A model generated the notes under the pieces. The model did not search any database. It saw only the letters and a program-made list of their open reading frames with translations, and was not told where the DNA came from. Positions 1-12,501 of a stretch of 64,000 nucleotides of DNA are shown here, in pieces. Each line of letters begins with the position of its first letter. Within the stretch, counting starts at the first letter, position 1. The position numbers and the translations under genes were made by a program. Origin of the DNA: a plasmid. The stretch is taken from NCBI RefSeq assembly GCF_054482525.1, contig NZ_JBTHVG010000004.1. The stretch is one strand, 5' to 3'.

Positions 1-1
1 A

Positions 2-655
2 GAGCGCACGCTGGCAGTCCAGGCGGCACTCATGCAGCAGCCGGACAAATCTCTGGCACTGCTGGCATGGACGCTCTGCCTGAATGTGTTTGGCAGCGGG
101 GCGTACAGTAAACCAGCACAAATCAGCCTGGAATGTGAACATTACTCGCTGACCAGCGATGCGCCATCGGGGAAGGAAGGTGCCGCATTCATGGCGCTGA
201 TGGCAGAAAAAGCCCGTCTTGCTGCCCTGTTACCGGAGGGATGGTCACGGGACATGACGACATTCCTGTCACTCAGTCAGGAGGTGCTGTTATCCCTGCT
301 CAGCTTCTGCACTGCGTGCAGCATCCACGGTGTTCAGACCCGTGAGTATGGTCACACGTCACGCAGTCCGCTGGACTCGCTGGAAACCGCTATCGGCTTT
401 CACATGCGCGACTGGTGGCAGCCGACAAAAGCAAACTTCTTCGGACACCTGAAAAAGCCGCAGATTATCGCAGCCCTGAATGAGGCAGGACTGTCCGGTG
501 CCGCACGGGACGCGGAGAAGATGAAGAAAGGCGATGCCGCTGAACATGCAGAGTTCCATATGAAAGACAACCGCTGGGTGCCTGGCTGGATGTGTTCACC
601 ACGTCCACAGACGGATGCCACTGAACGCGCCGATAACCTGGCTGATGCCGCCTGA
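2..655 (+). CDS. 3' part of a leading-region protein (ParB-like family suspected); 5' end lies outside the window
   Basis: Reading frame is open from the window edge and in frame with ORF 32..655; sits immediately upstream of psiB. Family assignment is from memory of leading-region gene order only. Confidence 0.45.
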   Translation, partial: ERTLAVQAALMQQPDKSLALLAWTLCLNVFGSGAYSKPAQISLECEHYSLTSDAPSGKEGAAFMALMAEKARLAALLPEGWSRDMTTFLSLSQEVLLSLLSFCTACSIHGVQTREYGHTSRSPLDSLETAIGFHMRDWWQPTKANFFGHLKKPQIIAALNEAGLSGAARDAEKMKKGDAAEHAEFHMKDNRWVPGWMCSPRPQTDATERADNLADAA

Positions 656-706
656 TGAACAACCACACCGCCCCGCCGGAGACGGGGCGGCAGAGGGAGA
701 AATACG

Positions 707-1144
707 ATGATGAATACCGAACTGACACTGAATGCCCTGCAGTCCATGAATGCCCAGGAATATGAAGAAATCCGTGCTGCGGGAAGCGATATGCGCCGTA
801 ATCTCACTCACGAGGTGATGCGTGAAGTGGACGCACCAGCTAACTGGATGATGAACGGAGAGTATGGCAGCGAGTTCGGGGGCTTTTTCCCCGTCCAGGT
901 TCGTTTCACGCCAGCCCACGAACGTTTCCACCTGGCATTATGTTCGCCGGGAGACGTCTCTCAGCTCTGGATGCTGGTTCTGGTGAATGGTGGTGGACAG
1001 CCTTTCGCCGTCGTTCAGGTGCAACATATCTTCACGCCTGTCGCGATCAGTCACACGCTGGCGCTTGCCGCGACACTGGATGCGCAGGGATACAGTGTTA
1101 ACGACATCATCCATATCCTGATGGCAGAAGGAGGTCAGGCATGA
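707..1144 (+). CDS. psiB: PsiB, plasmid SOS-inhibition protein B
   Basis: 145 aa product with near full-length similarity to PsiB of F/IncI plasmids (TELTLNxLQxMNAQEYE...HILMAEGGQ); followed by psiA with a 4 bp overlap. Confidence 0.93.
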
Positions 1145-1860
1145 GCGCACGTTCACGGGCACTGATCCCCCTCAGCGCAGAACAACAGGCCGCCATGCAG
1201 GCGGTGGCTGTCACAGAACAACGTCGTCGTCAGGGACGCACACTTTCAGCATGGCCTTATGCCACCGCTTTCTTTCGCTGCCTGAATGGCAGTCGCCGGA
1301 TTTCGCTGACCGATCTCCGCTTTTTTGCCCCTGCGCTGACGAAGGAGGAATTTCATGGCAACCGTCTCCTGTGGCTGGCTGCCGTGGATAAACTGATTGA
1401 AAGTTTTGGGGAAGTCTGTGTTCTTCCCCTGCCATCCGATGCGGGGCACCGTCTGTTCCCGTCCGTGCCTTTTCGTGAAGGTGAGCGTCGTCGTCAGAAA
1501 ACCACGCTGACAGAGCAGAAATACAGCCGCCAGCGGGAACGTGAGGCAGAACGACGGGAACTGGAATACCAGACATGTTTTGCTCAGGCGCAGATTGACC
1601 TTGCGTTTCATACTCCCGCCACGGTCGGAAGCTGGTTGTCCCGCTGGTCTGGTGTTGTTGAGGAGCATGATCTGGAAACGATTTTCTGGGGGTGGTGCGG
1701 GCGTTTTCCGTCACTGTCATCATTTGACCGGTTTTTCTGGCAGGAGGAACCACTCTGGCGGCTGATTTTTGAAGCCGGTGAGGCCGGTCGTGGTGCACCG
1801 ATACAGGTACGTGCACTTGAGCAGTGGATGATCCCGAACAAGCTGGAGAACGTAATATGA
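1141..1860 (+). CDS. psiA: PsiA, plasmid SOS-inhibition protein A
   Basis: 239 aa ORF overlapping the psiB stop (ATGA); size and position match PsiA. Confidence 0.85.
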
Positions 1861-2453
1861 TGAAATCAGACGAAAAATACCAGGTTCCCGCGTGGATGCG
1901 ACCTCTGTTGCCGTTGCTCTGCAACACCGGGGGGAACGATCCGGAAGAACTGCTGAATGATACAGAAACCACTGCCAGTGCGAATGTTGTCCGTTATGTA
2001 CTGATAGTTGCTGTGCGGTCGCAGGTTGATCTGCTGCAGCTTCTGTACAGGAAAGGGCTGTTGCGCACAGAGATACCAGGTGGCTTTTCACCGGAAGAAG
2101 CGCAGGCACTCCTGGATAATCTGGTGCGCAGCCATATCAGCAAGGCGCTGTCGGGCGAGCGAATGGCAGCCCGTGACAGAAATGCCGATCTGGCCTGGAT
2201 TAGACAGCAACTGGTCGATGCCGCCTGGTTTGTCCGTGCCACACTGGAAGCGCATGGGATGAGCGTCGGAAATGAGAGTCCCCCTGCTCCGCCGGAGACA
2301 ATGCCGGACATACAGACACGGGAACTGGTGATGTTGATCAAGCGACTGGCATCATCGCTGAAAGCGGTGAAACCGGACAGTTGTGTGGTGCGTGAAGCGC
2401 AGGACTGGCTGCGCGACAGAAAACTTGTGGATATCACAGATATTCTCCGGTGA
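1857..2453 (+). CDS. leading-region hypothetical protein (about 198 aa)
   Basis: ATG at 1857 overlaps the psiA stop; the listed 1824 start lies inside psiA. No recognisable domain. Confidence 0.55.
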   Translation: MMKSDEKYQVPAWMRPLLPLLCNTGGNDPEELLNDTETTASANVVRYVLIVAVRSQVDLLQLLYRKGLLRTEIPGGFSPEEAQALLDNLVRSHISKALSGERMAARDRNADLAWIRQQLVDAAWFVRATLEAHGMSVGNESPPAPPETMPDIQTRELVMLIKRLASSLKAVKPDSCVVREAQDWLRDRKLVDITDILR

Positions 2454-2914
2454 ACCAGGCATGTATATTTTACGCAGGGACATGCCGGTCATGATCGTTT
2501 CGTTCCAGGGGTGGTCTGGAGATCATGCGGTGTGCTCCCTGCTCTCGCCGGAATAAGGACGTCGCCGCCGGCTCCGCTTTTACCCGGCCATGCGGGGCAT
2601 GGCCTTGTGGGTTTTCAGTTATGTGGCCTCAGCGTCGTGTGCGGGCTGTGCCGTGCCTCCATCGTAGCCGGGCTTCTGCGGGCGGGTTGCAAGGTAAGGT
2701 GAACCGCTGCGGTCACCCGGTCCCTCCTTCCCGTCCGCCGTGATTTTCCGGTCGTTCACCCGCTCAGATTTCGCGGTCTCACCCTCCAACTCCCGCCAGC
2801 CGTGTGCGTCAGGCTGCGGCTTCCCTTGCGCCCTTGCAACCCTGCAGGCCCGGCAAAGATGGAGGCACGGCACCGCCCGGTGTCGCAGAACATGTGACTA
2901 TGGAGGATTCGGGA

Positions 2915-3415
2915 ATGTCTGTTGTTGCACCTGCTGTATACGTTGGAACCTGGCACAAATACAACTGTGGAAGCATCGCCGGACGCTGGTTTGACCTGAC
3001 CACGTTTGATGATGAGCGCGACTTTTTCGCCGCCTGCCGTGCTCTTCACCAGGATGAAGCCGATCCTGAACTGATGTTTCAGGATTATGAGGGATTCCCG
3101 GGGAATATGGCCTCTGAATGCCATATCAACTGGGCCTGGGTTGAAGGCTTCCGCCAGGCACGGGATGAAGGCTGCGAAGAGGCTTATCGTCTCTGGGTGG
3201 AGGATACCGGTGAGACGGATTTTGACACCTTCCGCGATGCCTGGTGGGGCGAGGCTGACAGTGAGGAGGCTTTTGCGGTTGAGTTCGCCAGTGATACCGG
3301 CCTGCTGGCTGACGTGCCGGAGACGGTGGCGCTCTATTTTGACTATGAGGCGTATGCGCGGGATTTATTCCTGGACTCCTTCACCTTTATTGACGGTCAT
3401 GTGTTCCGTCGGTGA
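2915..3415 (+). CDS. ardA: ArdA antirestriction protein (type I restriction inhibitor, DNA mimic)
   Basis: 166 aa from the internal ATG at 2915 (MSVVAPAVYVGTWHKYNCGSIAGRWFDLTTFDDERDFF...), matching ArdA length and acidic composition; the longer 2804 start runs into a GC-rich leader. Confidence 0.9.
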   Translation: MSVVAPAVYVGTWHKYNCGSIAGRWFDLTTFDDERDFFAACRALHQDEADPELMFQDYEGFPGNMASECHINWAWVEGFRQARDEGCEEAYRLWVEDTGETDFDTFRDAWWGEADSEEAFAVEFASDTGLLADVPETVALYFDYEAYARDLFLDSFTFIDGHVFRR

Positions 3416-3770
3416 TTTACTCCCCCGCTCCGGCGGGGGTATGGCCTGCCAGGCCGCCGGAAAACCCTGGCAGGCTTACGCCTGCCTGAAATGCAGGAGG
3501 GCCGCGCCTGCGGCGCTGCCCTTCCTGCCCGTCATGGTGTGAGGCATTTTTCTGTTATGTCGTTTCTGTTGTTCTGATTTCCGGAGGCGGGGACACCTTC
3601 GGCTCCCGGCTGCCTGGCGGCATCCGGTCGTCAGGCCCGACTCCGACAGGCAGCTGCTGGCGCACCCGCCAGTCTCCGCCGAACCCGCTGGCGCGGTTTC
3701 GGGCTGCCGCTACGGTCCGATGTCTGAAAAACCAGGCTTGCAGCGACCGTTCCGGTCGCGCCGCCCCTGT

Positions 3771-4120
3771 CGCGCCGGAAACGGCGCTCCCTGCACACCT
3801 GACGGTGTGTAAGGCCACTGCGCCTGATGGCGCAGTCAACCCTTCCGCCGCCACCCCTGCGGCCTGTTTCCCGCTGTGGACTTTCCGGGGGCTGGAGTAA
3901 CCACATCCCGTTTCAGCAGTCCAGGGGAAGATATACCGTCCACAAAATTTTTAGCCATAAACCCGGCAAAAAATTTTGCGTCCGCCCCCGGACAGCTGCC
4001 CCGTGACGTGGTGACGGACGCCCCATCGGAAAGGTCCACTGCGGGGAGAAACCCCGAAGAAGTGGACGGCAGAAGGGGCTTTCGCCCCTCCGGGGAGCAA
4101 CCGGTCGGCCCGGCGACCTG
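3771..4120 (+). promoter_or_regulatory. Frpo/ssi-like structured repeat, copy 1 (putative single-strand promoter)
   Basis: About 350 bp non-coding block repeated at 6637..6990 with internal palindromes (CACACC-TGACG-GGTGTG; CTGCGCC-TGAT-GGCGCAG); ends about 20 bp before ORF 4144. Confidence 0.55.
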
Positions 4121-4143
4121 ATTCAGCAGAAGGAGACGTTTTC

Positions 4144-4578
4144 ATGACTGTCAGCAGCACGATTTCCGTTTTTTGCCGCGACGGGGTGTTCCGTACCGTT
4201 TACTGCCACCTGCACGGTGAGCCGACCTGGAACGGTCGCATCCTGCATACCCACTATGCCACCGGTCAGCAGGCCGAAGCCCTGGTTGAACACGGTGATA
4301 TCCGTTGCCTCGGTCCCCGTTGCGACAAACCCGCCGGGCATACGCTTCAGAACCCGGTGGACGGTGTGACGGCTTATTACGGACGTGACAGTGGTTTCCG
4401 GATGGACAGTGAGGCGCGTGAGTACCGTTCTTTCAGGGAGGCTATTGCCACTGAAAGCACTGAAGAGGTGCGCTTCCATTATGTGTTCATCGACGGCTAC
4501 TGGAAGGTGATGTACCGCACGCCGGAAGGCTGGAAGATGAAAGCGCTCGCGCTGGCACTGCGTCGCTGTCCGAAATGA
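4144..4578 (+). CDS. leading-region hypothetical protein (144 aa) downstream of ssi-like repeat
   Basis: Clean ORF with GGAG-type RBS (agaaggagacgttttcATG); no recognisable domain. Confidence 0.6.
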   Translation: MTVSSTISVFCRDGVFRTVYCHLHGEPTWNGRILHTHYATGQQAEALVEHGDIRCLGPRCDKPAGHTLQNPVDGVTAYYGRDSGFRMDSEAREYRSFREAIATESTEEVRFHYVFIDGYWKVMYRTPEGWKMKALALALRRCPK

Positions 4579-4670
4579 AAAAAGGCAGGGCGATAAACCC
4601 TGCCTCTCTCCGCCGGCGCTTCCCCGCCAGGAAGTCCGGCATCTCAATCACTATCTATGGAGATTATGCC

Positions 4671-4937
4671 ATGAGACCATCAATTATCTTCGCAACCGCC
4701 GAGTATGTAAAGCGTCTGCGTGAAGAGTGCCTGCGGGAGAATAAACCCCTGCACCGCCATACCCGCTTCAGACGTCAGGAGCTGGCACAGGATGAGATTA
4801 ACCCGGACGTCCTGGCGATGAGCGGCCATATCGCCAGACGCTGCAGTGAGCAGAAGCGGGTGCGTATCCCCGCTATGAAAGTCAGCGAATGGGGCCACCT
4901 GCTCCGCGCGCTTGAAATTGAGCGGGTCTGCCACTGA
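4671..4937 (+). CDS. hypothetical small protein (about 88 aa)
   Basis: ATG at 4671 preceded by ctatggagattatgcc; the listed 4575 start overlaps the previous gene end. Confidence 0.4.
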   Translation: MRPSIIFATAEYVKRLREECLRENKPLHRHTRFRRQELAQDEINPDVLAMSGHIARRCSEQKRVRIPAMKVSEWGHLLRALEIERVCH

Positions 4938-5001
4938 TTAACCCTTGCCGTCTGCCTGTGCAGGCGGCAGGATACGTTCAGACATCTCACCAGGAGGAAC
5001 C

Positions 5002-5892
5002 GTGAGTAAGAAGAAAACCACCACGACGCCCACGCCGCATGATGCCGCGTTCCGGTCGTTCCTGGCGAATCCCGACGTCGCCAGAGATTTTCTGGAACTG
5101 CATCTTCCGGCGGAGTACCGGCAGTTGTGCGACCTGTCCACGCTGAAGCTGGAACCCGCCACCTTTGTTGAGCCGGACCTGCATCAGTACGCCAGCGATA
5201 TCCTCTGGAGTGTGAAAACCACCGGGGGTGAAGACGGCTATGTTTATACGCTCATCGAGCACCAGAGCACCGAAAATCTGTACATGCCTTTCCGCATGTT
5301 ACGTTACAGTGTGGCGGCGATGCAGAGACATCTGGAGCAGCACAAAACGTTGCCACTGGTGATTCCTGTGCTGTTCTATCATGGTGAGCGCAGCCCGTAC
5401 CCGTACAGCATGAACTGGCTGGACTGTTTTGAGAATCCGGCACTTGCGGCTAAAATATACACAAAGCCGTTTCCGCTGGTTGATATCACTGTCGTTGATG
5501 ACAATGAAATCATGAACCATCGCCGGATGGCCGCACTGACGCTGCTGATGAAGCATATCCGCCATCGTGACATGATGGATCTGCTGGACAAACTCCCGCA
5601 GGTCATGGTGGAAATTTCAGACGAGCAGGTGCGTGTTCTGATTCATTACATCGTTAACGCAGGGGACTCTGTATCACCGGAATTTATGCGGGCGCTGGCT
5701 GAGCGTCTGCCGCAGCATGAGGATAAACTGATGACTATCGCAGAACGTCTTGAGCAAAAAGGTCGCCAGGAAGGAGCGCTTGAAAAAGCCCTGGCTATTG
5801 CGTGCCAGCTTCAGAAAATGGGGATGACGCCGGAGCAGATTAAGCAGGCTACCGGACTTTCCGAAGCTGAACTGAAAAAAATCATTCACTGA
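5002..5892 (+). CDS. Rpn-family (YhgA-like) PD-(D/E)XK recombination-promoting nuclease
   Basis: GTG start at 5002 with strong RBS (caggaggaac cGTG); product VSKKKTTTTPTPHDAAFRSFLANPDVARDFLELHLP... resembles E. coli Rpn proteins across the nuclease core and C-terminal domain. Confidence 0.75.
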   Translation: MSKKKTTTTPTPHDAAFRSFLANPDVARDFLELHLPAEYRQLCDLSTLKLEPATFVEPDLHQYASDILWSVKTTGGEDGYVYTLIEHQSTENLYMPFRMLRYSVAAMQRHLEQHKTLPLVIPVLFYHGERSPYPYSMNWLDCFENPALAAKIYTKPFPLVDITVVDDNEIMNHRRMAALTLLMKHIRHRDMMDLLDKLPQVMVEISDEQVRVLIHYIVNAGDSVSPEFMRALAERLPQHEDKLMTIAERLEQKGRQEGALEKALAIACQLQKMGMTPEQIKQATGLSEAELKKIIH

Positions 5893-5902
5893 TGAGAGCA
5901 TC

Positions 5903-5930
5903 ACAGCCCGGCAAAATGCCGGGCTTTTTT
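5903..5930 (+). terminator. rho-independent terminator after the Rpn gene
   Basis: cagcccggcaaaatgccgggc followed by a T-run. Confidence 0.6.
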
Positions 5931-5954
5931 GTCAGCAGGAGCAGAGAAAACAGT

Positions 5955-6149
5955 ATGACGCTTGCAGAACGTCTTATACAGAAAGGTTTCGACGAAGGTT
6001 TTAAAGAAGGTTTTAAGAAAGGTGCGCTTGAAGTGGCGCGGGAAGCAGCCTGCCGGCTGCGGGATATGGGCTGGACGCCGGAACGGATTCAGGAGGCGAC
6101 CGGACTTTCCGGTGAAGAACTGAAAAAGCTGTTTCCTGATGAGCAGTAG
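5955..6149 (+). CDS. stand-alone Rpn C-terminal-domain paralog (about 64 aa)
   Basis: MTLAERLIQKGFDEGFKEG...MGWTPERIQEATGLSGEELKKLF aligns with the last about 55 aa of the upstream Rpn (MTIAERLEQKGRQEGALEK...MGMTPEQIKQATGLSEAELKKII). Confidence 0.6.
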   Translation: MTLAERLIQKGFDEGFKEGFKKGALEVAREAACRLRDMGWTPERIQEATGLSGEELKKLFPDEQ

Positions 6150-6179
6150 CCTGACATTCTGCCAGGCTGTGAATCACGC

Positions 6180-6431
6180 TCACACATTCCCTGCCGTTTC
6201 CCCCAGTTCATTTTCCAGACGCCTGATGATATCTGCCTTGCGCATCCCCTGCATGTGAGGCAGCAGGTCACGGACTGAAAGTGCCTGGGTGGTCCTCCAG
6301 ACGGTGACGTCCACCTGTTCCGCATTTTCCCAGGCGTGCCATGTTCTCTGCGTCACGCCAAATTCTCTGGCCGCTTTTTCGCGTGACCATAGCATGCTTT
6401 TTCGCCAGATTCGCAGTTCCCAGCCGGTCAT
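6180..6431 (-). CDS. small helix-turn-helix DNA-binding protein (83 aa)
   Basis: REKAAREFGVTQRTWHAWENAE resembles an XRE/Cro-type HTH; palindromic sites lie in its upstream region. Confidence 0.5.
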   Translation of the reverse strand: MTGWELRIWRKSMLWSREKAAREFGVTQRTWHAWENAEQVDVTVWRTTQALSVRDLLPHMQGMRKADIIRRLENELGETAGNV

Positions 6432-6447
6432 AAAACACCTTTGAAAA

Positions 6448-6535
6448 AGTGAAAAAACTTCACTTTATTTTATCATCACAATTGCCAAATCAGCGCGATA
6501 AATAAGTGTAAAAAAGTGAAGAAATTTCACTTTTT
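6448..6535. promoter_or_regulatory. pair of 15 bp palindromes (GTGAAAAAACTTCAC and GTGAAGAAATTTCAC), putative operators
   Basis: Two near-identical inverted-repeat sites about 65 bp apart, immediately upstream of the minus-strand HTH gene. Confidence 0.35.
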
Positions 6536-6636
6536 TTGTTTGTAAGTGTCGTGCGGTTTTCTCTGTTTTCACCTGTGCGGGAGTGGTGTGCCAGTGACCA
6601 CCACATGCCATTGTTGTGCCGTCGTTTTTCTTCAGT

Positions 6637-6990
6637 CGCGCCGGATGCGGCGCTCCCTGCACACCTTACGGTGTGTAAGGCCACTGCGCCTGATGGCGCA
6701 GCTGTCTCTTGCCTGTCTGCCGCCGCACTGCGGCCTGTTCTCCGCAGACGGACTTTCCGGGGGTACATACACGACCACATCCCGTTTCAGTCGTCCAGGG
6801 GAGAGATGTACCAGCCACAAAACTTTTTGCCGCTGGCGTCAAAAACTTTTGCGTCTGCCCCCGGACAACTGCCCCGTGACGTGGTGAGCGTCCCCCGTCG
6901 GAAAGGTCCACTGCGGGGAAATACCCTAAGACCCGGACGGCAGAAGGAGCTTCGCTCCTCCGGGAAATGACCTGGCTGACCCGGCAGTCG
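6637..6990 (+). promoter_or_regulatory. Frpo/ssi-like structured repeat, copy 2
   Basis: Homologous to 3771..4120 over its whole length with scattered substitutions; ends about 20 bp before ORF 7012. Confidence 0.55.
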
Positions 6991-7011
6991 TGACGATGAG
7001 GAGACAATGTG

Positions 7012-7860
7012 ATGAATCAGACTTTACCCACTGCTGACCTGAATACTGCCGGCACGACAGATGTTATTCCGTCTGTGGCTATCGACCGCATCATCGCGCA
7101 GCGTAACGAAGGTATTGCACTATTCATGCAGGCGATGGAATGCCTGGCGACAGCGCGCAGGATTCTGCTCGATGCGTCAGGTGATATTTTTCTTTACGGG
7201 TTTGAAGACTGCGTGACTGATTCCGTTCGTCGCATGGATAAGCCGGAAGAAGCGAAAAGGAATATCACCCGTCTTGCCGACCGGAAAATCTGGGACCGCC
7301 TGATGACAGATACGGGCATGTACACCTTCATGAGTTCATGCCAGCGTGATGAGTGGAACAGCCAGCTGATGAGCGACACCTGTCCTGAAATCACCCTGGA
7401 CAATGTACTGGCAACATTCCGCCATCTTAATACCAGCAAGATGCAGACGTTTGAACAGGGACTGATTGATGTCTACCGGAAATTGTCATGGGATTACAGA
7501 ACCAATAATCCCTGCCGTCTGGGCAAGAAAATCATTATTGAAAACATGCTGTACCGCTGGAGTAACGGGCGTGTGACGCTGGACTGCAGCGGACGGGAGG
7601 CACTGGATGACCTGGTACGTCCTTTTTATCTGCTGGAGGGGCGAAACGTTCCTGACTTCCGGAGCAGCATCGGGGCGCAGTATGGTGAATTTCTCGGGAA
7701 CGGCGACAACGTCGGTAAGCTGTTAGAAGGGGAATATTTTACGGTGCGTGGCTACCAGAAAGGGACCGTACACATTGTCTTTAAGCGTCCTGACCTTGTT
7801 GAAAAACTGAATGATATTATTGCACGGCATTATCCTGGTGCATTGCCGCCACGAGTCTGA
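7012..7860 (+). CDS. leading-region hypothetical protein (about 282 aa) downstream of ssi-like repeat
   Basis: ATG at 7012 after GAGGAG RBS; long clean ORF; no domain assigned with confidence. Confidence 0.6.
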   Translation: MNQTLPTADLNTAGTTDVIPSVAIDRIIAQRNEGIALFMQAMECLATARRILLDASGDIFLYGFEDCVTDSVRRMDKPEEAKRNITRLADRKIWDRLMTDTGMYTFMSSCQRDEWNSQLMSDTCPEITLDNVLATFRHLNTSKMQTFEQGLIDVYRKLSWDYRTNNPCRLGKKIIIENMLYRWSNGRVTLDCSGREALDDLVRPFYLLEGRNVPDFRSSIGAQYGEFLGNGDNVGKLLEGEYFTVRGYQKGTVHIVFKRPDLVEKLNDIIARHYPGALPPRV

Positions 7861-7867
7861 TTAAACA

Positions 7868-7905
7868 GAAAAGCCCTGGTATTTATGCCGGGGCTTTTTT
7901 TTCTG
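7868..7905 (+). terminator. rho-independent terminator
   Basis: agccctggtatttatgccggggc followed by a T-run of 8. Confidence 0.6.
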
Positions 7906-7945
7906 TAATCATCATAATCTCAGAACACGATGTGACATTGTCACA

Positions 7946-8287
7946 TCAATTGTTGTTCATATCGATGCCATCTTTCCTGCCTGAATCTGTCTTTTTAGGT
8001 GCTGTTTTAGAGGAAGAACGGCGGGATGGTTTTTTCGATTCTGCTTCCCGAATAATGTCACGAAGTGCCTTCTCTCCTACTTCATACCCTGCATTTTTAA
8101 GCGTGTCACGAACATCTGCCAGTGTATAACCCTTTGTCCTTACCAGGACAATGATGTCATCACGAATGGCATCAAGAAAATCACGCAATGTTTTCCGTTG
8201 AGCGGTGAGGTCCGGCAATTCCGATAAGGCAGCTTTTGCCAGCTGGATGTCATCATCTGAGTAAAATTTTTTAGAAGCCATTGGCAC
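7946..8287 (-). CDS. hypothetical protein (113 aa) with basic Ser/Lys-rich C-terminus, adjacent to oriT
   Basis: Clean ORF; tail SKKPSRRSSSKTAPKKTDSGRK suggests nucleic-acid binding; no family assigned. Confidence 0.5.
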   Translation of the reverse strand: MPMASKKFYSDDDIQLAKAALSELPDLTAQRKTLRDFLDAIRDDIIVLVRTKGYTLADVRDTLKNAGYEVGEKALRDIIREAESKKPSRRSSSKTAPKKTDSGRKDGIDMNNN

Positions 8288-8289
8288 TT

Positions 8290-8514
8290 TCTCTCCGTTT
8301 CATGTTGAAGTCTGATTTTATCATCAAAAACTGACTCCTGGCAGGGCTGCGCCCTGCTTCTGCCGTCTGCATAAGACTATGATGCACAAAAATAACAGGC
8401 TATAATGGCCTGAAAAACGGGACAGGATGTGCAATTGTAATACCGTCACACGCGACGCTATTACAATTGCCATCTGGTCAGGGCTTCGCCCCGACACCCC
8501 GTAAGGAGCCTGAA
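8290..8514. other. oriT region (IncI1-type) with NikA-binding inverted repeat
   Basis: Intergenic region upstream of nikA containing the imperfect inverted repeat GCAATTGTAATA...TATTACAATTGC (about 8430..8470) and the palindrome CAGGGCTGCGCCCTG (about 8340). Confidence 0.65.
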
Positions 8515-8847
8515 GTGAGTGATAGTGCGGTAAGAAAGAAAAGTGAGGTACGGCAAAAGACAGTTGTCAGGACACTCAGATTCTCTCCTGTTGAGGATGA
8601 AACCATCAGGAAAAAAGCTGAAGATTCCGGACTTACTGTATCTGCTTACATCCGAAATGCAGCACTGAATAAGCGAATTAACTCCCGTACAGATGATGCT
8701 TTTCTGAAGGAGTTAATGAGACTGGGAAGGATGCAGAAGCATCTGTTTGTTCAGGGAAAAAGAACCGGTGACAAGGAATACGCAGAAGTGCTTGTTGCCA
8801 TAACCGAACTTACAAATACATTGCGTAAACAGTTAATGGAAGGTTGA
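8515..8847 (+). CDS. nikA: NikA relaxosome accessory protein (ribbon-helix-helix)
   Basis: 110 aa from a GTG start after AGGAG RBS (VSDSAVRKKSEVRQKTVVRTLRFSPVEDETIRKKAED...), matching R64 NikA; the upstream part of the listed ORF is oriT. Confidence 0.85.
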   Translation: MSDSAVRKKSEVRQKTVVRTLRFSPVEDETIRKKAEDSGLTVSAYIRNAALNKRINSRTDDAFLKELMRLGRMQKHLFVQGKRTGDKEYAEVLVAITELTNTLRKQLMEG

Positions 8848-8857
8848 GGATTCTCCG

Positions 8858-11560
8858 GTGAATGCAGTCATTCCGAAAAAGAGAAGGGACGGCAAGTCTT
8901 CGTTCGAAGACCTGGTATCCTACGTCTCTGTCCGGGATGACATGACCGATGAGGAACTGGATTTATCTTCTTCTTCGCAGGCTGAACAACCGCACCGAAG
9001 CCGTTTCAGTCGCCTTGTTGATTATGCGACACGTCTTCGAAATGAGTCATTCGTGGCGCTGGTTGATGTCATGAAGGACGGCTGCGAATGGGTCAACTTT
9101 TATGGTGTCACCTGCTTTCATAACTGTACTTCTCTTGAAACTGCCGCTGCAGATATGGAGTACATTGCCCGGCAGGCACACTATGCAAAAGATGACACTG
9201 ATCCTGTTTTTCACTACATCCTTTCCTGGCAGTCACATGAAAGCCCGCGTCCGGAACAGATTTATGACAGTGTACGTCATACGCTGAAATCACTCGGCCT
9301 TGCCGACCATCAGTATGTCTCTGCCGTGCATACTGATACAGATAATCTGCACGTCCATGTGGCTGTTAACCGGGTACACCCTGAAACGGGTTATCTGAAC
9401 CGGTTATCATGGAGTCAGGAAAAACTCAGTCGTGCCTGCCGTGAGCTTGAACTGAAGCATGGTTTTGCTCCGGATAACGGTTGCTGGGTCCATGCGCCGG
9501 GAAATCGTATCGTTCGCAAAACTGCCGTTGAACGTGATCGCCAGAACGCTTGGACACGCGGAAAAAAACAAACTTTTCGCGAGTATGTTGCGCAGACAGC
9601 GGTCGCTGGTTTACGCAGTGAACCTGTACATGACTGGTTATCCCTGCATCGTCGTCTTGCTGAAGATGGTTTGTACCTGTCTCAGATGGACGGAAAATTT
9701 CTGGTGATGGATGGCTGGGATCGCAACAGGGAAGGTGTACAGCTTGACTCGTTTGGTCCCTCCTGGTGTGCAGAAAAACTCATGAAAAAAATGGGTGACT
9801 ACACGCCAGTGCCAAAAGACATTTTCAGCCAGGTGGAAGCACCAGGACGCTATAATCCGGACTTCATTGCAGCTGATGTTCGCCCGGAAAAAATCGCTGA
9901 AACAGAAAGTCTGCAGCAGTATGCCTGTCGTCATCTTGGAGAACGTCTGCCGGAAATGGCACGGGAAGGACGGCTGGAAAACTGCCAGGCTATTCACCGC
10001 ACACTGGCTGAAGCGGGATTATGGATGCGTGTTCAGCATGGTCACCTGGTTATCTGTGACGGTTATGATCATAACCAGACTCCCGTTCGTGCTGACAGCG
10101 TATGGTCACTGCTGACGCTCGACAATGTGAATCAACTCGATGGTGGCTGGCAGCCTGTACCAACAGATATTTTCCGCCAGGTTACGCCAACAGAACGCTT
10201 CCGTGGTCGTCGTATGGAGAGCTGTCCTGCGACCGATAAAGAATGGCACCGTATGCGTACAGGTACGGGGCCGCAGGGGGCTATCAAACGCGAACTGTTT
10301 TCTGACAAAGAAAGTCTGTGGGGATACAGCATCAGCCATTGTAGCCCTCAGATTGAAGAAATGATCACACAGGGTGAGTTTACCTGGCAGCGTTGTCATG
10401 AGTTGTTTGCACAACAGGGACTGATGCTACAGAAACAACATCACGGGCTTGTTGTCGTTGATGCCTTTAATCATGAGCAAACGCCGGTGAAGGCCAGCAG
10501 CATTCATCCTGATCTGACTCTGGGGCGTGCAGAGCCACAGGCCGGACCTTTTGTGAGTGCCCCAGCAGATTTGTTTGACAGGGTGCAACCTGAAAGTCGC
10601 TATAACCCGGAGCTGGCTGTCAGTGACAGGTACGGGGTCAGCAGTAAACGTGACCCAATGCTGCGCCGGCAGCGACGTGAAGCCAGAGCTGAGGCCCGTG
10701 CTGACCTGCGTGCCCGCTATCTGGCATGGCGTGAACAATGGCGTAAACCAGATCTGCGTTATGGGGAACGTTGTCGGGAAATTCATCAGGCATGCCGTCT
10801 GCGGAAGTCACACATTCGTGCGCAGTACGATGATCCGGCATTACGTAAGCTGCATTATCACATTGCAGAAGTTCAGCGAATGCAGGCATTGATCAGGCTG
10901 AAAGAAGACATCAGGGATGAGCGGCAGAAACTTATTGCTGACGGGAAGTGGTATCCACCCTCTTACCGTCAGTGGGTCGAAATTCAGGCTGCTCAGGGAG
11001 ACAGGGCTGCTGTATCGCAGCTGAGAGGCTGGGATTATCGCGATCGCCGTAAAGATAAGTCACGCACAACGACAACAGACCGCTGTGTCGTGCTTTGTGA
11101 ACCGGGCGGAACGCCGGTATACGGTAATACCGGTGATCTCGAGGCCCGTTTGCAGAAGAACGGGAGTGTTCGTTTCCGTGACCGTCGGACGGGAGAGTTT
11201 GTCTGTACGGATTATGGTGACAGGGTTGTTTTCCGTAATCACCATGACCGCAATGCGCTGGCAGATAAACTGGATTTGATTGCACCGGTATTATTCGGGC
11301 GTGATCCACGCATGGGTTTTGAACCAGAAGGAAACGACAAACAATTTAACCAGGTCTTTGCTGAAATGGTTGCCTGGCATAATGTGACAGGCCGTACCGG
11401 TCACGAAGACTACAGGATTACGCGACCGGACGTGGATCATCACCGTGAAGGAAGTGAACGCTACTACCGCGATTATATCGCGGCGAACAGCAACGATGAC
11501 GCATCACTGCCTCCGCCGGAGCAGGATAAACTCTGGGAACCGCCTTCTCCGATGAGATGA
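8858..11560 (+). CDS. nikB: NikB relaxase (MOBP-type)
   Basis: 900 aa ORF after nikA; contains the histidine motif HVHVAVNRVHPETG; size matches R64 NikB. Confidence 0.9.
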   Translation: MNAVIPKKRRDGKSSFEDLVSYVSVRDDMTDEELDLSSSSQAEQPHRSRFSRLVDYATRLRNESFVALVDVMKDGCEWVNFYGVTCFHNCTSLETAAADMEYIARQAHYAKDDTDPVFHYILSWQSHESPRPEQIYDSVRHTLKSLGLADHQYVSAVHTDTDNLHVHVAVNRVHPETGYLNRLSWSQEKLSRACRELELKHGFAPDNGCWVHAPGNRIVRKTAVERDRQNAWTRGKKQTFREYVAQTAVAGLRSEPVHDWLSLHRRLAEDGLYLSQMDGKFLVMDGWDRNREGVQLDSFGPSWCAEKLMKKMGDYTPVPKDIFSQVEAPGRYNPDFIAADVRPEKIAETESLQQYACRHLGERLPEMAREGRLENCQAIHRTLAEAGLWMRVQHGHLVICDGYDHNQTPVRADSVWSLLTLDNVNQLDGGWQPVPTDIFRQVTPTERFRGRRMESCPATDKEWHRMRTGTGPQGAIKRELFSDKESLWGYSISHCSPQIEEMITQGEFTWQRCHELFAQQGLMLQKQHHGLVVVDAFNHEQTPVKASSIHPDLTLGRAEPQAGPFVSAPADLFDRVQPESRYNPELAVSDRYGVSSKRDPMLRRQRREARAEARADLRARYLAWREQWRKPDLRYGERCREIHQACRLRKSHIRAQYDDPALRKLHYHIAEVQRMQALIRLKEDIRDERQKLIADGKWYPPSYRQWVEIQAAQGDRAAVSQLRGWDYRDRRKDKSRTTTTDRCVVLCEPGGTPVYGNTGDLEARLQKNGSVRFRDRRTGEFVCTDYGDRVVFRNHHDRNALADKLDLIAPVLFGRDPRMGFEPEGNDKQFNQVFAEMVAWHNVTGRTGHEDYRITRPDVDHHREGSERYYRDYIAANSNDDASLPPPEQDKLWEPPSPMR

Positions 11561-11682
11561 CAGATGAAGCTTTATTAGTTTCGTTATAGAATGAAAAAAT
11601 CACCAATATTAAATATGGGTGTGGTGGTAAAAATAAATATGTTAGGCAATGTTAAGTAACTCTATTGACGGAATCATGTTTT

Positions 11683-12501
11683 ATGAGCACTAATCTTGCT
11701 TTTCGTTATGCAAGTGTTGAAACTTTTTTTAAAATGATTGAAAACCAAGAATTATGGTTTACCGATCTTCGGAATATGAATGATCCGGAAGAATACTCGG
11801 CTGGCTATGAAATAGTCAAGAGAATAATAAATGAGGAATTTCCAGATTGCATTAGACTATTAGAAGAAGTATCACCTAATAAGATAGACGAAAATTTTAA
11901 GATATTAATTTGTTGTTTCTGTTCTGATGGAGATCGTTCCAACATGTGGAGCGAGTATGGTGATAATGGCAAAGGCGTTGCTATTGGTTATGATAAGAAT
12001 ATTATAACCCAAAATCATATTTTGGCTCGGTTTGAAGAACATTTTCAACCTATTAGTGGTAGAGTTGTCTTTCATCCTGTTATCTATTCAGAAGAACTGT
12101 TTCGAGAATATGTAAGAAACGCATTGCATGATTATATTAATCGCTCAAGTTTAAATATTAAATATGCACGTGGCATACTTCATGCACATCTTATCAGACT
12201 ATGTTCATTATATAAGAGAGAGAGTTTTGAATGTGAAAATGAGGTCCGAGGACTTATTGAAGTAGATGAACGTACATTCCCACCATACAAACTTGAAAAA
12301 CGTAGTACTGATTACGGAATTGCGTATTATACTAAGGTGAAATTTACCTGTAACAATATTACGGCAATTAGAGAGATTGTGTTGGGGCCTTTATTTGAAC
12401 AATCTGATGAACAGCTTCGGTCAAAATTAGATGATCTAGGGTTAAAGAATATAAAAATTAGACGTTCCATATGTACCTACAATGATGTGGTTAATCTGTA
12501 A
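11683..12501 (+). CDS. AT-rich cargo gene, DUF2971-like protein (about 272 aa)
   Basis: Markedly AT-rich codon usage compared with flanking nikB/trbC; motifs FTDLRNMNDPEEY and CCFCSDGDRSNMWSEYGDNGKGVAIGY recalled as DUF2971-like (not searched); terminator follows. Confidence 0.6.
   Translation: MSTNLAFRYASVETFFKMIENQELWFTDLRNMNDPEEYSAGYEIVKRIINEEFPDCIRLLEEVSPNKIDENFKILICCFCSDGDRSNMWSEYGDNGKGVAIGYDKNIITQNHILARFEEHFQPISGRVVFHPVIYSEELFREYVRNALHDYINRSSLNIKYARGILHAHLIRLCSLYKRESFECENEVRGLIEVDERTFPPYKLEKRSTDYGIAYYTKVKFTCNNITAIREIVLGPLFEQSDEQLRSKLDDLGLKNIKIRRSICTYNDVVNL

Follow-up and report, generated by a model that had tools for sequence, protein, structure and literature searches.

A probable Rpn toxin-antitoxin-type locus with intragenic and free-standing copies of the nuclease tail in the leading region of an IncI plasmid

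The window analysed here is a 64,000-nucleotide stretch of a plasmid (NCBI RefSeq assembly GCF_054482525.1, contig NZ_JBTHVG010000004.1), and all positions refer to this whole stretch unless another record is named. It carries the gene rpn, encoding a nuclease of the Rpn/YhgA family, which is followed on the same strand by a small open reading frame (ORF), rpnSs, encoding a homologue of the C-terminal tail of that nuclease; both reading frames have the limits and the strand given to them in a first-pass annotation of this DNA. Within rpn, a start codon at position 5731 with its own ribosome-binding site, overlooked in that annotation, very probably opens a second, in-frame product, so that the locus has three products and is not a two-gene pair. 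In our assessment this is most likely an Rpn toxin-antitoxin-type locus such as Zhong et al. 2023 (PMC10400941) have reported, made up of the full-length nuclease (RpnL), an intragenic C-terminal protein (RpnS) and a free-standing tail paralogue (RpnSs) that is not the matched antitoxin.

The rpn gene starts with GTG, with AGGAGG 5 nt upstream, and is the counterpart of ygdB of IncI (incompatibility group I) plasmids. The proposal that it encodes an Rpn/YhgA-like PD-(D/E)XK nuclease is borne out by matches of the protein to the Pfam family Transposase_31/YhgA-like (PF04754, E = 4.9e-78, residues 11-207) and to the NCBIfam family TIGR01784, 'Rpn family recombination-promoting nuclease' (177 bits, where the cut-off is 52.1), and by 53% identity to E. 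coli RpnA. The residues required for RpnA activity, D11, D63, E82, Q84 and R94 (PMC5350276), align to the identical residues D14, D66, E86, Q88 and R98 of the window protein, and the nuclease N-domain has a ratio of nonsynonymous to synonymous polymorphism (pN/pS) of 0.05 among the alleles of related loci. With these catalytic residues intact, RpnL is predicted to be an endonuclease that would be toxic alone, as are RpnA, RpnB and RpnP2. Elsewhere in the protein, Asn168 (positions 5503-5505), in the motif DDNE, aligns with RpnA D165, which sits in a PDDE motif and whose replacement in D165A yields a hyperactive enzyme (PMC5350276). Among the phage protein families of PHROGs, phrog_12274 (138 positions) matches the C-terminal half of Rpn only (residues 171-293, the tail included), and there is a full-length family as well, phrog_3300.

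In every E. coli rpn gene, translation also starts internally and yields the C-terminal domain, RpnS; this small protein binds full-length RpnL and prevents it from being toxic, from inducing the SOS response and from cleaving DNA, and the rpn genes were accordingly described by Zhong et al. 2023 as toxin-antitoxin systems (PMC10400941). The earlier suggestion that Rpn proteins have a C-terminal part able to modulate the nuclease is in line with that work. In RpnA the internal start has been proven experimentally at M244 (PMC10400941), and the candidate internal start in the window Rpn is a methionine with the same residue number, 244. The motif (L/I/M)MT(I/L)A at the internal start is common to all five K-12 Rpn paralogues. 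The string CTGCCGCAGCATGAGGATAAACTGATG around the internal ribosome-binding site is identical across 48 related cassette starts, and the 27-nt context of ATG 5731 shows no differences among them. The tail encoded from this start, which we call type A, has a pN/pS of 0.17. A promoter-like site further upstream within the coding sequence matches the consensus at 10 of 12 positions, and its hexamers are kept in related loci; internal transcription start sites are present in K-12 rpn genes (PMC10400941), and this site, a consensus match only, could drive a short RpnS transcript as in K-12. RpnS is thus the predicted cognate antitoxin of RpnL, and we infer that the two proteins pair.

The first-pass annotation had described the product of the downstream ORF as homologous to about the last 55 residues of the nuclease and had proposed a pairwise alignment. 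This alignment is significant and places the homology in the last 53 residues of Rpn: by BLASTP, residues 1-59 of the rpnSs product align to residues 244-294 with 33 identities and one 8-residue gap (E = 1e-16), and the first residue falls on Met244, so that both proteins begin at an equivalent methionine. At the DNA level, 5731-5774 and 5955-5998 are 75% identical and 5756-5879 and 6004-6127 are 72% identical, and the offsets of the two aligned blocks, 224 and 248 nt, differ by 24 nt. The rpnSs product also matches C-terminal positions 218-273 of TIGR01784 (E = 1.4e-7). The similarity between the tail and the small ORF far exceeds chance. We refer to this downstream, free-standing form as type B; it is identical to the window's own type A tail at 33 of 53 positions (62%), to a third tail form found in relatives, type C, at 43%, and to the tails of K-12 RpnA-E at no more than 50%.

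An AGGAG Shine-Dalgarno-like site precedes rpnSs at a spacing longer than the optimum, and translation of rpnSs is for this reason expected to be weak. The sequence GTCAGCAGGAGCAGAG is kept upstream of free-standing cassettes, together with ATG 5955, both in metagenome contigs and in annotated plasmids, and every type B allele retains its own ATG and AGGAG. Outside the repeats described below, rpnSs has a pN/pS of 0.27 over 21 alleles. A protein search with the small ORF returned 329 clusters, nearly all of them 'hypothetical protein' of enterobacterial plasmids, with lengths that step by four residues (60, 64, 68, 72 and 76 residues; a 52-residue form has no repeats). By tblastn the small ORF was found in 2029 plasmids of the PLSDB database, in DNA spans of 156-228 nt that step by 12. 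When 45 of these 2029 rows were sampled evenly, the small ORF was a separate 'hypothetical protein' gene in 44 and was never annotated under rpn, the lone exception being a weak 50% match to an rpn tail. From the sequence we conclude that the small ORF appears to be a conserved protein-coding gene of the RpnSs type.

The start usually called for this gene by RefSeq and its annotation pipeline PGAP lies elsewhere, at ATG 5892, where it overlaps the rpn stop and opens an 85-residue ORF. We rejected this start: it is missing in the many relatives in which the rpn stop context reads TGAGTAA, the conserved start being ATG 5955, and the resulting ORF would cross the hairpin described below. Newer records call the small gene 'RpnC/YadD family protein'. 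Database entries of relatives of the small ORF carry a precomputed PF27070 tag. The RpnA-S structure (PDB 7th0), a three-helix bundle with a long first helix (PMC10400941), was retrieved from the PDB by phmmer with the RpnA tail as query and not with the small ORF; the top PDB matches of the small ORF (IcmE/DotG and designed repeat proteins) were discarded as repeat or low-complexity artefacts.

A terminator had been proposed between the two ORFs, and a terminator-like hairpin followed by a T-run is indeed present there. The hairpin has 9 bp, 7 of them G-C pairs, and is followed by TTTTTTGT. An exact 42-mer comprising the hairpin and the downstream ribosome-binding site occurs in 55 metagenome contigs, and in plasmid R64 and in one further relative (L063) the base of the stem carries a compensatory A-T to G-C change. 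With the hairpin included, the spacer between rpn and rpnSs is 62 nt long. The second hairpin, straight after the rpnSs stop, is homologous to the first and has no T-run; in relatives it reads AGCCTGGC-ATTCA/ATTCT-GCCAGGCT with 8 bp, and in the window it is weakened to 6 bp. In one plasmid (L066, NZ_CP060750.1, 2442-2554), the IS66-family insertion sequence ISCro1 lies directly after the hairpin 3' of rpn; the B cassette is gone and the nuclease keeps its intragenic tail only. A 25-nt inverted repeat (5942-5966 and 6541-6565, 80% complementary, 574 nt apart) flanks rpnSs and ygeA, for which chance is a plausible explanation.

The two tails differ most plainly in their four-residue repeats. The nuclease tail reads QKG-RQEG-ALE and the small ORF QKG-FDEG-FKEG-FKKG-ALE, so that the 8-residue gap between them is exactly two tetrads (one repeat against three). 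In the DNA, Tandem Repeats Finder reports a period of 12 with 2.8-3.7 copies at 5980-6023. Across related loci the internal repeats have the form (R[QM]EG)n, with n = 0-6, beginning 11 residues past Met244, and those of rpnSs the form (F-x-x-G)n, also with n = 0-6. In the 49 related loci in which both copies could be read, the internal tail and the downstream ORF each have 0-5 tetrads (up to 6 elsewhere); 20 different combinations occur, and the two numbers vary independently; they are equal in only 3 loci and differ in the other 46. Hypervariable four-residue repeats of this kind lie in the shared long helix that forms the dimer interface, 8-20 residues past the initiating methionine, where they set the specificity of RpnS, and a single added repeat in RpnC-S, or in RpnC-L alone, abolishes inhibition (PMC10400941). 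Taken with the mismatch of one repeat against three, this experiment leads us to infer that RpnSs should not inhibit its own RpnL; RpnSs is probably not a length-matched inhibitor of the adjacent nuclease.

The tails also occur in longer arrays. Three-tail plasmids include L011, p720632_86, pGF43-A and pCR-0005_3; these arrays were confirmed as individual examples, because counting by coverage in PLSDB joins paralogous pieces. The order in such arrays is a nuclease fused to a type C tail with (IQQG)n repeats, then a free type A tail, then type B, and each free-standing cassette is preceded by the same spacer of stop, hairpin, T-run and AGGAG. Type A tails are therefore found both fused, as in the window, and free-standing, as in L011 and L063-L065; PGAP labels the middle cassette of L065 an 'incomplete, missing N-terminus' Rpn pseudogene. 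In pGF43-A, the free-standing middle cassette encodes a protein identical to the internal RpnS of the window, and its Rpn equals the window Rpn through MTIAERLEQ, bar three scattered substitutions, and then continues as type C. This break places the point of exchange in the 5' box that the cassettes have in common, ATGAC..GCAGAACGTCTT. The R64 archetype has a type C tail with 5 repeats fused to the nuclease and a type B RpnSs with 1 repeat. Type B is always last and always free-standing in the 58 loci analysed, and no full-length Rpn with a B-type tail was found in protein searches covering 1.8 billion representatives, a set in which clustering could hide chimeras.

Table 1. Features of the rpn locus and coordinates of three-tail relatives. 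Positions are those of the window except in the last row.
Feature	Position	Strand	Remarks
rpn (RpnL)	5002..5892	+	PD-(D/E)XK nuclease of the Rpn/YhgA family, 296 aa
Promoter-like site	5429..5456	+	TTGAGA-16-TAAAAT; candidate internal promoter for a short RpnS transcript
Ribosome-binding site of the internal start	5719..5723	+	GAGGA, read from the sequence, 7 nt upstream of ATG 5731
Intragenic RpnS ORF (predicted; tail type A)	5731..5892	+	53 aa, in frame with rpn from Met244
Four-residue repeat of the type A tail	5764..5775	+	RQEG, one tetrad
Terminator-like hairpin and T-run	5905..5931	+	AGCCCGGC-AAAAT-GCCGGGCT, then T-run; hairpin proper 5905..5925
Shine-Dalgarno-like site of rpnSs	5937..5941	+	AGGAG, read from the sequence, 13 nt ahead of the ATG
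rpnSs (type B tail homologue, free-standing)	5955..6149	+	64 aa, ATG start
Four-residue repeats of rpnSs	5988..6023	+	FDEG FKEG FKKG, 12-nt tandem array
Second hairpin	6148..6168		Straight after the rpnSs stop, between convergent rpnSs and ygeA; read from the sequence
ssi/Frpo-like element, about 290 nt	3769..4054	-	Upstream of the ygcA-ygdA-rpn block; second copy 6635-6926
Three-cassette examples	L063 (NZ_CP025846.1) 1607-2272; L064 (NZ_CP172128.1) 1530-2240; L065 1533-2198; L011

The locus belongs to the leading region of IncI plasmids, as the first-pass annotation had supposed and as synteny with annotated IncI plasmids and R64 confirms. Positions 1-11550 of the window are collinear, at 98% identity, with an annotated IncI-gamma/K1 plasmid in which the gene order is psiB-psiA-ygaA-ardA-ygcA-ygdA-rpn(ygdB)-small ORF-ygeA-ygfB-mobC-nikA-nikB, and R64 shares this layout. 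The rpn locus thus falls in the interval from ardA to nikA, at a distance of about 2.4 kb from nikA and oriT; it shares its strand with ardA and psiB and is transcribed toward oriT. A 1351-nt query covering the locus matched 2039 PLSDB plasmids, nearly all of them conjugative and from Escherichia, Salmonella and Shigella, with this IncI-gamma/K1 plasmid as the best match. Of 5426 complete E. coli genomes, 1378 have the locus, which occupies 1440 places on plasmids and 64 on chromosomes.

Two directly repeated copies of an element of about 290 nt, 71-96% identical and spaced about 2870 nt apart, bracket the rpn block and lie upstream of ygcA and of ygfB. As single-stranded DNA, the minus strand of 3740-4070 folds into one long hairpin with a predicted free energy of -107 kcal/mol (z = -10.5). 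Single-strand promoters of the ssi/Frpo class have been reported in the leading regions of IncI1 and F plasmids (PMC12672017), and the element looks like a member of this class, by which the ygcA-ygdA-rpn block would be expressed early. An Rfam scan of window positions 1-12000 gave no match.

Several observations were made on the neighbouring genes. The gene ygeA (6180..6431, minus strand) encodes a helix-turn-helix protein; just upstream of its start, a 26-nt inverted repeat, AAAAAGTGAA..TTCACTTT (6444-6469 and 6510-6535), has arms that are 85% complementary and separated by 40 nt, and might serve as an operator or belong to a divergent promoter region. The product of ygfB (7009-7860), a DUF4942 protein encoded next to the second 290-nt element, matches phrog_6263, 'DNA methyltransferase' (E = 2.7e-19), and also several PHROG families of unknown function. 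That of ygcA (4144-4578) matches phrog_1987 and phrog_23089, phage families without an assigned function, and for its homologue in L064 (1-377) one RefSeq record has the name 'post-segregation killing protein PndC', where others have 'hypothetical protein'.

An arrangement of this kind, with RpnL, RpnS and RpnSs, was already published in 2023, and the window is a further example of it. The window shares with the characterised RpnL/RpnS systems (RpnA, RpnB, RpnC and RpnP2, the last from a plasmid of ECOR13 and protective against T-even phages; PMC10400941) the protein family, the conserved catalytic residues, an internal methionine at residue 244 with its own ribosome-binding site, and a tail with variable tetrads 11 residues past that methionine. 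The tail may also resemble theirs in having three helices, as predicted with modest confidence for RpnSs. Unlike them, the window locus lies in a conjugative leading region and not at a chromosomal site or in a defence island, and is described here from its sequence.

Free-standing RpnSs copies have been described after rpnE (ypaA), after rpnC and, in general terms, on plasmids; YpaA is made as a protein, as shown by SPA (sequential peptide affinity) tagging, RpnCSs and RpnESs are most similar to their own upstream tails, and such copies can disappear, either through deletion or by becoming fused to the N-terminal domain (PMC10400941). A second copy is also remarked on in Koonin's commentary (PMC10400984). 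As in rpnE-ypaA and rpnC-rpnCSs, the window's small ORF lies immediately downstream on the same strand, begins at the equivalent methionine, differs from the tail in repeat number (YpaA carries one more tetrad than the RpnE tail) and is nearest to its own upstream tail, which fits the published pattern of RpnSs copies deriving from their own locus. The differences are nonetheless clear. YpaA and the RpnE tail share 82% identity and lie 12 nt apart, the AGGAG being well spaced and a hairpin absent, whereas the window has 62% identity and a 62-nt spacer that contains a hairpin; moreover, IncI loci hold up to two free-standing cassettes, and the B-type cassette is near-universal in the IncI lineage and not sporadic.

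The Rpn genes of IncF plasmids from Klebsiella and Salmonella resemble the window in having an N-domain 65-75% identical to it, an internal MTIAQQL start and repeat-bearing tails, but they adjoin the partition genes parAB and do not lie in a leading region, and no downstream free-standing tail cassette was found in the three IncF examples examined. The leading regions of plasmids are enriched in orphan antitoxins (Samuel and Burstein 2024, PMC11541004). The window locus, near oriT among ardA, psiB and single-strand-promoter-like elements, resembles such leading-region antitoxin genes in its position, but unlike the orphan antitoxins it has the toxin gene alongside, and Rpn is not mentioned in that study (0 occurrences). 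In the searchable literature we met with no paper connecting Rpn to IncI plasmids or to the leading region, and no description of two- or three-cassette arrays or of a near-universal B-type cassette. Two features are new relative to the literature searched: the placement in the leading region, about 2.4 kb away from oriT, and the array of cassettes.

The observations establish the homology and the coordinates, the conservation of the starts, the variation in the repeats, the purifying selection and the arrays of cassettes, and from them a model of the locus can be proposed in which the toxicity of RpnL, its pairing with RpnS, the expression of RpnSs and the binding partner of RpnSs are the predicted parts. 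RpnL would be a toxic DNA endonuclease when alone. RpnS made from Met244 should be able to pair with the RpnL tail, because it has the identical sequence and repeat number, and would keep the nuclease inactive. RpnSs, a diverged free-standing paralogue of the tail, would probably be made at a lower level through read-through, since its gene lies after the hairpin and T-run. The tails would behave as modular cassettes, each consisting of a ribosome-binding site, ATG, tail ORF, stop and hairpin, which vary by slippage of the 12-nt repeats and by recombination at the 5' box. B-type RpnSs might then act in trans as a dominant-negative partner for Rpn-type tails, with a specificity unlike that of the intragenic RpnS.

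Several points weigh against this interpretation. The synthesis of both small proteins from this plasmid is a prediction, and the hairpin ahead of rpnSs, together with the 13-nt spacing of its Shine-Dalgarno-like site, may make its translation very low. The rule that a mismatch in repeat number abolishes inhibition comes from RpnC only, and may not carry over to the tail of the window. The deficit of loci with equal repeat numbers is not significant (3 observed against 6.7 expected, P = 0.07, with loci that are not independent), and from these figures we draw no conclusion as to whether equal numbers are avoided. An AlphaFold2 model of RpnSs, of modest confidence (predicted local distance difference test score, pLDDT, 68), has one long and two short helices (residues 3-37, 42-49 and 53-59); in a Foldseek search with it, RpnA-S (7th0) ranked third and had the highest probability, 0.75 (TM-score 0.72, target-normalised), with E = 1.9, and there was no statistically significant match. 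A Pfam-A scan of the 64-residue product found no match to DUF4351 (PF14261), the family that Zhong et al. name for some free-standing RpnS genes (PMC10400941), its sole match being a weak Yae1_N/HTH-like one, and PADLOC has no model matching either rpnSs or Rpn.

The first-pass annotation had seen in the locus a two-gene toxin/antitoxin-like arrangement. This stands in so far as Rpn loci do act as toxin-antitoxin systems, the nuclease being inhibited by its C-terminal domain in free form (PMC10400941), but not in its pairing of genes: the predicted cognate antitoxin is the intragenic one from Met244, the repeat counts of the two tails match in 3 of 49 loci, and the products very probably number three. 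The small ORF could still supply the adjacent Rpn with its antitoxin, or with a back-up for it. Its product is a homologue of the domain with the antitoxin role in other Rpn systems (PMC10400941), it is adjacent on the same strand and kept together with the nuclease in about 2000 plasmids, and it shares with the nuclease tail both the first 11 residues and, past the repeats, the pattern A-L-E-x-A-x-x-x-A-C-x-L. A perfectly matching intragenic RpnS is available, however; repeat numbers differ in 46 of the 49 loci, when one extra repeat was enough to abolish inhibition in RpnC (PMC10400941); and the same B-type ORF accompanies both type A and type C nucleases, to whose tails it is 62% and 43% identical. 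We regard this role as unlikely, though far from negligible. It is also unlikely that the small ORF is mainly a recombination reservoir for changing tail specificity, its free protein being dispensable. Such a role would account for the occurrence of type A tails in both fused and free form (the window; L011 and L063-L065), for the break between pGF43-A and the window within the conserved 5' box, for the fusions of N-domains with rpnSs regions reported by Zhong et al. (PMC10400941), and for the upstream terminator and poorly spaced ribosome-binding site. The B tail, on the other hand, is never fused in the 58 loci, in 44 of the 45 sampled rows of 2029 or in the protein searches, every B allele keeps its own ATG and AGGAG, and the K-12 counterpart YpaA is made as protein (PMC10400941). 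The data weigh moderately against both of these readings, and most strongly against the idea that the small ORF is a functionless 3' fragment left by the decay of a second rpn. The K-12 gene ypaA does carry a pseudogene annotation, the middle cassette of L065 is annotated as incomplete, and frameshifts or truncations occur in a few of the metagenome copies (L023, L047, L052 and L057). But the ORF starts exactly at the methionine homologous to the internal start and has no trace of an N-domain upstream, its length changes only by multiples of 12 nt, its pN/pS is 0.27 over 21 alleles, and it is intact in about 2000 plasmids, which makes a remnant highly improbable.

Two further readings concern conflicts between genetic elements. 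RpnSs could be an orphan antitoxin expressed early after conjugative entry that neutralises an Rpn of the recipient or of a resident plasmid, a decoy in anti-defence or competition. The distance of about 2.4 kb from oriT, downstream of a single-strand-promoter-like element, the over-representation of orphan antitoxins in leading regions (PMC11541004) and the uncoupling of the repeat number from the locus's own nuclease would suit such a function. We consider it very unlikely, given that the B-type tail is at most 50% identical to the K-12 RpnA-E tails, that no full-length B-tailed Rpn was found among 1.8 billion representatives, that RpnS action is paralogue-specific (PMC10400941), that a toxic nuclease in the same early block would be superfluous for an anti-defence island, and that early expression of the rpn block is itself a prediction. 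The first-pass annotation had allowed for a decoy arrangement, and we found no evidence that supports it. A tblastn search of 50,697 phage genomes with the small ORF gave no hit, and so no evidence of a phage-encoded tail mimic. More generally, B-type RpnSs might be an early-expressed modulator in conflicts between genetic elements and not an antitoxin for its own nuclease. In one possible version it would disarm, as a dominant-negative decoy, the Rpn nucleases of those IncI-type plasmids, resident or competing, whose tail length it happens to match; in another, also possible, an 'anti-antitoxin' that sequesters RpnS and thereby arms RpnL. We hold a modulator of this kind to be decidedly unlikely but possible, because the cassette is near-universal, always free-standing, under purifying selection, uncoupled in its repeats from the nuclease and situated beside oriT. 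If it were correct, the hypervariable repeat number would be a specificity code between plasmids.

We therefore retain the interpretation of the window as an Rpn toxin-antitoxin-type locus with RpnL, an intragenic RpnS and an RpnSs that is not matched to its own nuclease. Rpn systems form a widespread class of nuclease toxin-antitoxin defence that was recognised only recently, and the IncI locus is present in about one quarter of complete E. coli genomes and in some 2000 sequenced plasmids, many of which spread antibiotic resistance. For annotation, the small gene is usually recorded as a 'hypothetical protein', often with a non-conserved start codon. The presence of a predicted toxic nuclease among the first genes to enter a recipient raises the question of whether it helps or hinders plasmid establishment. 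With 20 or more combinations of repeat number, two or three interchangeable tail types and a B cassette that was never seen fused, these plasmids provide a convenient system for studying the function and specificity of RpnSs, and the value of the locus is that of a natural test bed for what RpnSs does.

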